Source of the DNA: an uncultured Candidatus Saccharibacteria bacterium
GTDB lineage: Bacteria > Patescibacteriota > Saccharimonadia > Saccharimonadales > JAGQNK01
Assembly: GCA_964573155.1 (NCBI GenBank)
Contig: CAZNIN010000005.1
Location: 1-35,073, forward strand
DNA: 35,073 nt
Direction of reading: 5' to 3'
Within the stretch, counting starts at the first letter, position 1. Each line of letters begins with the position of its first letter. The notes beneath the pieces are model-generated. The model was given only the letters and a program-made list of their open reading frames with translations. It had not been told where the DNA came from and did not search any database. The translations under genes were made by a program, and so were the position numbers. Of the stretch, positions 27,054-27,694 are shown piece after piece.

Positions 27054-27142
27054 AGTGATTATACTTAATAGTATAAACCACAGACAGTATGAAACGAGAT
27101 AGTAATGCTTATGAATAAAGTTGGAGAAATGTCTAAAAGGTG

Positions 27143-27170
27143 TTGACAAATATAATATTTTTGCTAAAAT
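27143..27170 (+). promoter_or_regulatory. near-consensus promoter TTGACA-16-(TGc)TAAAAT on the + strand, opposite to all neighbouring genes
   Basis: -35 at 27143-27148 and extended -10 at 27162-27170. No start codon follows. Confidence 0.6.
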
Positions 27171-27176
27171 AGCAAT

Positions 27177-27580
27177 CTGTAACCCTCGCATAAGAGGTTT
27201 ACGTACCTTATACCCCTATTCTAACATCCTTCCGAGCATAATGTTTTGAAGGATATACGTTAGATTGTTTTAGAACGGCTATGTAAGTTGTTACCCTCCA
27301 CTTATGCTAGCGGTGCTCCACCTTAAAAAGGGAGCAACGTTCTAAAACAAACTAACCCCTTTAACTAGCCCATCCCAGCTTTGCTGGGTTGGTCCCGGTT
27401 CAAAGTGAGTACGTATTAGTATGCCCTGTCTGTCAGGGCGGCGCGAGTCTTTATGGAGTTTTGGACATCGACGCTTACACTCGGGTGGGTTGAAGGGTAC
27501 TGGGAATAATCCTCGGATTGTTCCCTGAAAAACGGTCTTCGAGCGGTGCCCACCCCCTCTCGGAGGCCGTTTTTCATTTT
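27177..27580 (+). ncRNA. unclassified structured RNA candidate (~400 nt)
   Basis: Bounded by the promoter above and a terminator at 27531-27580. Helices read by eye: 27190-27211; 27226-27232/27248-27254; a perfect 13-bp long-range pairing 27265-27277/27338-27350 that encloses 27278-27311 and 27312-27322; 27370-27392; 27423-27439; 27502-27525. The only ORF here is an R/K/C/P-rich 108-aa minus-strand frame. The strand assignment rests on the promoter and terminator only. Confidence 0.5.
27527..27580. terminator. bidirectional intrinsic terminator shared by pth (minus) and the + strand RNA candidate
   Basis: A 13-bp stem pairs 27531-27543 with 27559-27571 (two G-U pairs). An A-run (27528-27532) lies on the left and TTTTTCATTTT (27570-27580) on the right. 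Confidence 0.6.
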
Positions 27581-27694
27581 GTGCCCAGCTACGTCCCGTA
27601 GCCTCAGACGTTCGCCATTCCGAGTACAGCTTGCACCGGAGTATTTTCTTACAAAATGACGCTCGCATTTTGCAGCCTGCCGGCCATTTGTTAT

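Follow-up and report, generated by a model that had tools for sequence, protein, structure and literature searches.

Bacteria have few structured RNAs that are both large and highly conserved. Those that have been solved (ribosomal RNA, RNase P RNA, transfer-messenger RNA (tmRNA), signal recognition particle (SRP) RNA, and the group I and group II introns) are central machines, and those that have not, among them OLE, raiA, ROOL, and GOLLD, are active research targets. Comparative sequence evidence indicates that a separately transcribed, folded RNA gene of ~400 nucleotides (nt) sits in the gap between dprA and pth on a 35,073-nt stretch of DNA (contig CAZNIN010000005.1; hereafter the window), the host being a member of Candidatus Saccharibacteria, and the close relatives of the window Pth protein all coming from Saccharibacteria metagenome-assembled genomes (MAGs). 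This is almost certainly a genuine, new, class-wide noncoding RNA gene, and our analysis establishes the gene, its strand and boundaries, most of its helices, its taxonomic range, and its non-identity with the known housekeeping RNAs. The best overall explanation, to which we assign a probability of roughly 0.6, is that it encodes an unclassified large structured RNA of the Saccharibacteria that would act in trans as a scaffold for C-rich elements.

One comparator for this RNA is the class-A RNase P RNA (RF00010), which is similar in measuring ~350-450 nt, in occurring once per genome, in being conserved in its lineage, and in having a branched fold with long-range pairings and variable peripheral hairpins. 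The RNA nevertheless resembles it neither in sequence nor by covariance model, and it lacks both the P4 motifs and a P1 helix. A second group of comparators is formed by 6C of the Actinobacteria, RsaE/RoxS, and the Staphylococcus aureus RNAIII, whose C-rich loops act by pairing with G-rich RNA in Gram-positive bacteria. The RNA resembles these in its invariant and accessible C-rich loops and linkers (UACCCUCC, ACCCC, and CCCACCCCC), one of which is in the terminator loop, and in having its own promoter and terminator, and it resembles RNAIII in its several hundred nt of multiple hairpins; it is, however, much larger than 6C and RsaE, its sequence is far more conserved than in any of the three, helices included, and ribosome-binding sites appear to be scarce in its host. 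In the case of the OLE, raiA motif, ROOL, GOLLD, and HEARO RNAs (PMC12286853, PMC10861870), the likeness is one of kind: these are large, ornate, lineage-restricted RNAs with many invariant nucleotides and unsolved biochemistry that were found by comparative sequence analysis, as was the RNA described here, although it matches none of them and belongs to a different lineage. Furthermore, ROOL, GOLLD, and HEARO are tied to phages or mobile elements, whereas the saccharibacterial RNA is chromosomal and single-copy and has a fixed locus.

A separately transcribed RNA in the dprA-pth gap

The genes that flank the gap, as identified with Pfam, are all on the minus strand: topA (23804-26116) and dprA (26196-27053) on one side, and pth (27695-28336) and der (28369-29754) on the other. 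The transcription unit itself is defined by three features.

27143-27170, plus strand: promoter, consisting of the -35 hexamer TTGACA (27143-27148), a 16-nt spacer, and the extended -10 element TGCTAAAAT (27162-27170)
27177-27582, plus strand: predicted transcript of ~406 nt, its start placed from the position of the -10 element to within +/-2 nt
27143-27582, plus strand: the RNA gene overall, from promoter through terminator

The window promoter scores 11/12 and has the TG extension in addition, and it is conserved in the homologue set, which comprises 119 distinct full-length copies of 304-594 nt (median ~410 nt). The TTGACA hexamer is exact in 109 of the 119, a 17-nt spacer is found in 99, and TAAAAT or TAGAAT forms the -10 hexamer in 91; both hexamers are invariant in alignment A1. 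An initial reading of the window made from the sequence alone (the sequence-only reading) had proposed an independent plus-strand transcription unit behind a TTGACA-16-TGCTAAAAT promoter, and the conservation of both promoter and terminator, together with the strand evidence that follows, bears this out.

When 27177-27582 is folded as the plus strand, the energy is -164.5 kcal/mol (z = -8.5 against dinucleotide shuffles), and as the minus strand it is -146.1 kcal/mol (z = -6.2); the plus-strand fold is the more stable of the two in 109 of the 119 homologues, by a mean margin of 12.9 kcal/mol. The supported helices contain 215 G-U pairs compared with 55 A-C pairs, and within the long helix H3, described below, 17 and 8 of 71 sequences have U-G wobbles, which would become C-A mismatches if read on the opposite strand. 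Because of the G-U excess, the wobbles in H3, the promoter, and a one-sided U tract, we place the RNA on the plus strand. The U tract is evident in the homologues as at least 6 T per 8 bases past the terminator stem in 100 of 119, compared with a matching A run before the stem in 11 of 119, and the hairpin is therefore a terminator for the plus strand. The suggestion that the same hairpin also terminates the convergent pth gene fits the window but does not extend to the relatives, given how few have the A run. A simple terminator scan missed the hairpin because of its 15-nt loop.

The only long open reading frame (ORF) in the gap begins with ATG and runs from 27342 to 27668 on the minus strand, encoding 108 amino acids, and it offers the one argument for supposing that the region is protein coding, or that its inverted repeats are due to chance. 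The ORF has no Pfam match, it is broken by stops or frameshifts in the closest relatives (L001, L002, and others), and conservation takes the form of invariant blocks between covarying hairpins; on the strength of this covariation and of the broken reading frame, both coding and chance repeats were rejected, and their probability is close to nil. The original statement that the gap has no credible ORF overlooked the existence of this frame, but in substance it holds.

Distribution and gene neighborhood

The RNA region was found by BLASTN downstream of pth in 13 of the 13 Saccharibacteria loci that were fetched via Pth, even at loci where Pth is only 54-60% identical, and it was absent from both of the non-Saccharibacteria pth loci searched with BLASTN and nhmmer. 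A degenerate pattern made from the H3/H4 core and run over a genome collection identified at least 119 tiles with one match each, labeled Saccharibacteria, Saccharimonadia, Saccharimonadales, or plain "bacterium" with three exceptions. The three oddly labeled tiles (Dormiibacterota, Bacillota, and Sulfotelmatobacter) exhibit the same synteny, with flanking proteins 50-72% identical, and among the matches listed all tiles are Saccharibacteria either by label or by synteny. Near-complete single-contig genomes, such as OY970322.1 and CP064992.1, contain one copy of the RNA each, and nhmmer profiles of its two domains find a single copy in the window and no match in 1.74 Mb of tiles derived almost entirely from other bacteria. 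The RNA is thus apparently restricted to the Saccharibacteria (class Saccharimonadia), universal there, and present once per genome.

The usual setting is topA-dprA<>RNA><pth-der, with dprA divergent upstream in 97 of 118 loci, topA in 91 of 118, pth convergent downstream in 96 of 118, and der in 80 of 118, so that the dprA-RNA-pth synteny seen in the window is the rule among its relatives. The start of dprA is only ~55-125 nt upstream of the start of the RNA. This proximity might suggest an element acting in cis, whether a riboswitch-like leader whose expression platform is a terminator or, for dprA or pth, an insulator or antisense regulator, as might the terminator at the end of the RNA, the capacity of one GUUAG to pair with either of two CUAAC sequences (see below), and the presence in 38 of 89 loci of genes between the RNA and pth, often on the RNA strand. 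However, in the window as at most loci, the plus strand is empty past the RNA (the gap to pth is <450 nt in 51 of 89 loci, and >450 nt in the 38 others), the genes that do follow it elsewhere are from unrelated families, and the RNA is transcribed away from dprA and is kept at loci that have no dprA (L001 and L007). We consider a cis-acting role improbable, and a cis-regulatory leader specifically was rejected because most loci have no same-strand gene downstream, those that do have heterogeneous ones, and pth itself is convergent.

The 38 larger gaps contain unrelated accessory ORFs, mostly on the RNA strand (for example, L021, L048, L055, L074, and L086), which encode methyltransferase-like proteins, a Vut_1 transporter, and members of several families of unknown proteins. 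The position immediately past the RNA gene is apparently a hotspot at which variable insertions occur. Residence of the RNA in phages was also considered and rejected: the IMG/VR database has 16 matches to the motif of hairpin H4, of which 15 are unrelated phage gene starts on the opposite strand. The sole "viral" contig with the whole RNA is L150 (IMGVR_UViG_3300049064_000004), which has a Saccharibacteria-type copy at ~7978-8376, and upstream of it, replacing dprA and topA, are two DNA methyltransferases, a KhpA-like KH-domain protein, an FtsK/PD-(D/E)XK fusion, and a RecT-like protein. The arrangement resembles that expected if a mobile element or prophage had inserted next to the RNA gene.

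Approximately 130 core nucleotides are near-invariant across the 119 homologues, and the promoter and terminator are likewise conserved. Saccharibacteria have genomes of ~1 Mb from which many pathways have been lost, and as the ~400-nt RNA gene is kept in every sampled genome despite this small size, at the same locus and with a near-perfect promoter, it very likely matters to the cell. An important function, as the sequence-only reading had supposed, is a reasonable expectation for a gene with one copy per genome and near-invariance across a class.

Fold of the 5' domain

The consensus fold was refined on a 5'-domain alignment (A2, 71 sequences) and a 3'-domain alignment (A3, 46 sequences). 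These were MAFFT alignments with hand-specified helices, used together with nhmmer; the variable hairpins H2, H5, H7, H8, and H10 were judged by per-sequence folding, not by column covariation. The covariation score of the 5' domain is 0.192 compared with 0.120 for shuffled alignments, none of 500 shuffles reaching it, and slid controls give at most 0.082. Helices H1, H3, H9, and H6 and the terminator stem carry compensatory changes that exceed both the shuffled and the slid controls, and by per-sequence folding the variable segments are hairpins at fixed positions. Together with the fold z-score of the window sequence, this agrees with the initial description of a densely structured transcript. 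The 5' domain consists of the following elements.

27179-27202, plus strand: H1, the 5' hairpin, with 8 of 8 pairs changed on both sides, and forming a single hairpin in 109 of 110 homologues
27203-27225, plus strand: linker GUACCUUAUACCCCUAUUCUAAC, single-stranded, comprising C-rich element 1 and then the upstream CUAAC, near-invariant in 119 sequences
27203-27220, plus strand: linker segment GUACCUUAUACCCCUAUU, conserved and single-stranded
27221-27263, plus strand: H2, in which CUAAC (27221-27225) pairs with GUUAG (27259-27263), capped by a variable hairpin (27226-27254)
27259-27356, plus strand: H3, the long stem, in which UUGUUUUAGAACG (27265-27277) pairs with CGUUCUAAAACAA (27338-27350)
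27278-27311, plus strand: H4 hairpin, with the invariant 11-nt loop UGUUACCCUCC (27289-27299), C-rich element 2
27312-27337, plus strand: H5 hairpin, inside the H3 junction, variable in sequence and unrelated between homologues

At the 5' end, the hairpin first drawn at 27190-27211 is not the conserved one, and covariation instead backs H1, in all eight of its pairs. The long-range pairing of H3 was predicted correctly: it is a perfect 13-bp helix in the window, it is conserved in 71 of the 71 aligned homologues with 99.6% of cells paired, and it exhibits GC/GU/AU as well as GC/CG exchanges. Helix H3 closes a three-way junction whose interior consists of exactly two hairpins (27278-27311 and 27312-27337 in the window) in 93 of 111 homologues, again in keeping with the multi-helix junction initially proposed. 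The loop of H4 is invariant in 71 of 71 sequences, and the base of its stem has AU to UA and AU to GC exchanges.

In H2, 97.2% of cells are paired, and the changes are wobble-compatible, with L066 exchanging both sides (CUCUCU/AGAGAG); the insert that caps it is a hairpin in 61 of 106 homologues and is missing in 32 of 106. The GUUAG of H2 (27259-27263) has a second option, in which it pairs with a downstream CUAAC (27352-27356) and extends H3, and this pairing, ~98% paired, competes with H2. Covariation leaves the choice between the two pairings undecided, and individual homologues differ, L066 and L118 having retained only the upstream CUAAC option and L064 only the downstream one. The alternative GUUAG:CUAAC pairings may represent a folding intermediate or a conformational switch.

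The long duplex of H3 also raises the possibility of a relic or relative of a guide-RNA scaffold, such as the Cas9 tracrRNA:crRNA or the omega RNA of IscB or TnpB. The 5' strand of H3 reads GUUUUAGAGC in most homologues (GUUUUAGAAC in the window), which matches the initial 10 nt of type II-A CRISPR repeats, and, as in a tracrRNA:crRNA or single-guide RNA, it is found in a long, perfect, repeat:anti-repeat-like duplex upstream of hairpins and a terminator. In the RNA, however, the duplex is intramolecular and closes a three-way junction, and there is neither a Cas protein nor a CRISPR array; no cas, iscB, or tnpB gene was found among the Pfam-scanned ORFs of the window, a set that excludes three or four long ones at 17889-22472, or at the conserved neighbor positions. 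The gene is single-copy at a fixed locus, its variable parts are all self-paired hairpins with no unstructured guide segment, and it has no Rfam match to tracrRNA or HEARO. A guide-RNA origin is, in our view, highly improbable.

Fold of the 3' domain and the terminator

The 3' domain has a covariation score of 0.358 compared with 0.119 when shuffled (0 of 500 shuffles reach it) and at most 0.092 for slid controls, and 94.1% of its cells are paired compared with 81.3% when shuffled. It contains the following elements and ends in the terminator.

27357-27497, plus strand: H6, a long-range helix in which CCCUUUAAC (27357-27365) pairs with GUUGAAGGG (27489-27497), closing the 3' domain
27370-27392, plus strand: H7 hairpin, within the H6-closed domain
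27399-27412, plus strand: conserved UUCAAAGUGAGU, within the H6-closed domain
27423-27439, plus strand: H8 hairpin, within the H6-closed domain
27441-27474, plus strand: H9, within the H6-closed domain, with 8 of 9 pairs changed on both sides
27483-27498, plus strand: invariant G-rich strand GGGUGGGUUGAAGGGU, whose 5' half can pair with the terminator loop and whose 3' half forms H6
27502-27525, plus strand: H10 hairpin, optional and variable, found in most homologues and missing in about a fifth
27531-27582, plus strand: H11, the intrinsic terminator, with a 13-bp G+C-rich stem (27531-27543 paired with 27559-27571) followed by the U tract UUUUUCAUUUU
27544-27558, plus strand: H11 loop CGGUGCCCACCCCCU, 15 nt and invariant, C-rich element 3

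Helix H6 is 99.5% paired; two homologues (L007 and L009) have G:C in place of C:G, and two others (L006 and L043) have an A:U variant. In the stem of H11, 11 of 13 pairs are changed on both sides. The hairpins initially proposed at 27226-27254, 27370-27392, 27423-27439, and 27502-27525 are all present, as is the terminator stem at 27531-27571. Both ends of the RNA, 5' and 3', are unpaired in the single-sequence fold and in the consensus fold. Within the H11 loop, the sequence CCCACCC (27549-27555) is complementary to GGGUGGG (27483-27489) at the start of the G-rich strand, and their pairing would generate a pseudoknot stacked on H6. The two candidate strands are 97% paired and never vary, so that covariation cannot test the pseudoknot, both strands being invariant; the G-rich strand GGGUGGGUUGAAGGGU has an unpaired probability of 0.13.

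Comparison with known RNA families

The Rfam 15 models were applied to 26950-27800 of the window and to 15 homologous loci, both at the gathering score and at E<=10. At the gathering score the whole window gave only a truncated tRNA, and the only matches in the region at E<=10 were spurious ones of microRNA type on the long H3 stem; the 15 homologous loci gave no recurrent family, and a further 144 kb of loci gave nothing. There was no covariance-model match to OLE, ROOL, GOLLD, or raiA in the window or the homologous loci, no Rfam match to 6C (RF01066), RsaE, or RNAIII even at E<=10, and no description of the RNA was found in full-text searches of the literature, including one by its invariant sequences. 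On these sequence and structure comparisons we regard the RNA as a new family in both respects, and the sequence-only reading was therefore correct in calling it unclassified, just as it was in setting aside RNase P RNA, tmRNA, and SRP RNA, which Rfam, ARAGORN, and motif scans of the 119 homologues now address directly.

If the RNA were, on one strand or the other, a very divergent RNase P RNA, this would account for the ~400-nt length, the single copy per genome, and the pseudoknotted build, and diverged RNase P RNAs have been reported in bacteria of the candidate phyla radiation (PMC8172020); on the minus strand, in addition, AAUAGGGGUAUAAGGUACG resembles the J5/15-P15 region of the E. coli molecule. 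Against this identification, neither RF00010 nor RF00011 matched the region or the 15 homologous loci at the gathering score or at E<=10, the P4 sequences (A)GGAAAGUCC and ACAGAA...GGCUUA were found in at most 4 of the 119 homologues on either strand with 1-2 mismatches allowed, and the P1-type pairing of the ends is absent. Moreover, a canonical class-A copy exists elsewhere in the Saccharibacteria. Of the 120 tiles listed in a search with the P4 motif GAGGAAAGTCCGGGC, four are from Saccharibacteria contigs, each with a full-length class-A RNase P RNA scoring 206-261 bits, compared with a gathering score of 100, and in one MAG (SRP200132_co1_329) the RNA described here is on CAZRYT010000008.1 (L011, L042) while the RNase P RNA, at 260.7 bits, is on CAZRYT010000018.1 (L155). 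These four RNase P RNAs share no motif with the RNA, and because they are canonical class A, the divergence reported for other classes does not apply to these four genomes. RNase P RNA was rejected for either strand on the Infernal results, the missing motifs, the topology, and the canonical copies, leaving it a probability that is negligible, and the minus-strand likeness to E. coli M1 RNA noted at the outset is due to chance.

The canonical RNase P RNAs of the four genomes (L155, L179, L202, and L206) all contain GAGGAAAGUCCGGGC, and ACAGAACCCGGCUUA or ACAGGACCCGGCUUA is found in three of the four, with L155 having ACAAAACCCGGCUUA instead; the molecule of L206 has a large insertion that brings it to 465 nt in total. 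An idea that the linker ACCUUAUACCCC pairs with the L15 region of RNase P RNA was discarded, as the complement is missing from all four.

Other RNAs that are strongly expressed and encoded once per genome are tmRNA, SRP RNA, and 6S RNA, the last of which is hard to detect by sequence, and a diverged form of one of these would also fit the single conserved locus. ARAGORN found 0 tmRNAs in the window and in 134 loci, the tmRNA T arm GGUUCGA occurs in 0 of the 119 homologues on both strands, and there is no CCA-type 3' end; Rfam gave no consistent match to tmRNA (RF00023 and the permuted forms). The domain IV motif of SRP RNA (GGAAGCAGCC with a GNAR loop) occurs in 0-2 of the 119, which is absence or chance level, and neither RF00169 nor RF01854 gave an Rfam match; a pattern scan for a canonical SRP RNA elsewhere in the Saccharibacteria gave other phyla only among the 80 of its 120 matches that were listed. 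There was likewise no Rfam match to 6S RNA (RF00013), which is a rod of ~180 nt with a closing stem and a central bubble, whereas the RNA measures 304-594 nt and has a branched, two-domain fold with unpaired ends. All three were rejected on these defining features, and we consider a diverged form of any of them very improbable.

Possible function

The gene has the features expected of an abundant RNA that acts in trans, and as a trans-acting scaffold the RNA would be made and would work as follows. RNA polymerase would start ~7 nt past the near-consensus sigma-70 promoter, reading away from dprA, and transcription would end at the intrinsic terminator facing the 3' end of pth, such that the product would be a free ~400-nt RNA and no leader. 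The 5' domain would fold into H1, the single-stranded C-rich linker, and the three-way junction closed by H3, with the H4 arm displaying the loop UGUUACCCUCC, and the 3' domain would be closed by CCCUUUAAC/GUUGAAGGG, with the terminator loop CCCACCCCC able to pair with the adjacent GGGUGGG as a pseudoknot. With one GUUAG available to either of two CUAAC sequences, the interdomain junction may alternate between two folds. The resulting rigid, pseudoknotted scaffold would present three accessible C-rich elements to a G-rich RNA resembling a ribosome-binding site, or to a protein partner.

The accessibility of the C-rich elements is indicated by their mean predicted unpaired probabilities, which are 0.58 for the linker ACCUUAUACCCC, 0.81 for the H4 loop UGUUACCCUCC, and 0.62 for the terminator loop GGUGCCCACCCCCU, compared with 0.34 for the whole RNA, and each of these three invariant elements is similar to the anti-Shine-Dalgarno sequence. 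In 15 unrelated phage contigs, the complement of the H4 loop, GGAGGGUAACA, is a ribosome-binding site (GGAGGG) plus the spacer before ATG, and because of these phage gene starts the loop can be described as a perfect complement of a ribosome-binding site. In those contigs (L135-L149 of IMG/VR; for example, L136 at 6952-6969) the 18-nt H4 motif is found as the reverse complement of the gene start AAGUGGAGGGUAACAACU(A/G)AUG.

Several observations weigh against the C-rich-element scaffold. Complements of the C-rich elements in ~1 Mb of neighboring Saccharibacteria sequence are confined to the RNA gene itself, and neither a target nor a partner protein was found. In the window, TATAAT lies 5-10 nt ahead of the ATG in many genes, which look leaderless, and Shine-Dalgarno sequences are few; this weakens any proposal of global pairing with ribosome-binding sites. 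The pseudoknot and other tertiary contacts use invariant bases only, and L030 breaks the pseudoknot pairing; and it is by features only that tmRNA, SRP RNA, and 6S RNA are set apart from the RNA. Finally, ~130 invariant nucleotides, helices such as H3 among them, would be expected of a ribonucleoprotein or a ribozyme more than of a regulator that acts by base pairing, because such regulators usually evolve quickly. We regard pairing through the C-rich loops as doubtful.

The same conservation could instead reflect a Saccharibacteria-specific subunit of a housekeeping ribonucleoprotein, or a ribozyme, whose invariant loops are protein-binding or active-site elements. Consistent with this, the gene has one copy per genome, a fixed locus, and a strong invariant promoter; its invariant nucleotides extend to H3, H6, and the pseudoknot strands, although the Pth proteins of the same loci are only 54-60% identical; and its size and pseudoknotted two-domain build are like those of RNase P RNA, tmRNA, and OLE RNA. 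There is, however, no linked gene for a partner protein, the neighbors topA, dprA, pth, and der being ordinary housekeeping genes, and Rfam recognizes no known catalytic motif in the RNA. We judge this alternative to be unlikely, while giving it far more weight than any of those rejected above. The trans-acting scaffold, our leading model by analogy with the C-rich-loop regulators, carries low confidence; it would be a stable molecule and is probably protein-bound. It is also conceivable, though again we hold it to be unlikely, that the Saccharibacteria possess a housekeeping-grade large RNA found in no other known bacteria, in which the C-rich loops and the pseudoknotted core form a new functional site. 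Saccharibacteria can be genetically manipulated by natural transformation (PMC10633639), and deletion, depletion, pull-down, and structure probing of the RNA would be feasible, provided that cultured strains carry the gene.

Other observations in the window and its relatives

A TATAAT-like hexamer is found 5-10 nt before the ATG, with no Shine-Dalgarno sequence, at the gene starts at 1763, 2153, 3273, 5739, 9892, 16948, and 27053, among others, which suggests that leaderless mRNAs may be common in this organism. At 4685-5728 the window encodes a KwaB-like protein of the Kiwa anti-phage defence (PF16162, E = 2.9e-11). The gene is preceded by a 436-amino acid ORF with no Pfam match (region 3273-5728), which could be the KwaA partner, and near it are genes for a PIF1-type helicase (6458-7987) and an NYN-domain protein (8460-9041). 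Two other long stretches have no long ORF, one of ~450 nt between mraZ and rsmH (13224-13674) and one of ~570 nt (21293-21863), and neither has an Rfam match at the gathering score. Near the end of a Saccharimonadales contig, L056, there is a sub-threshold match to the type III hammerhead ribozyme (3773-3838, plus strand; 34.3 bits compared with a gathering score of 48.5, E = 0.0013). The tRNA gene at 35020-35073, which scores 29.1 bits, is cut by the end of the window.

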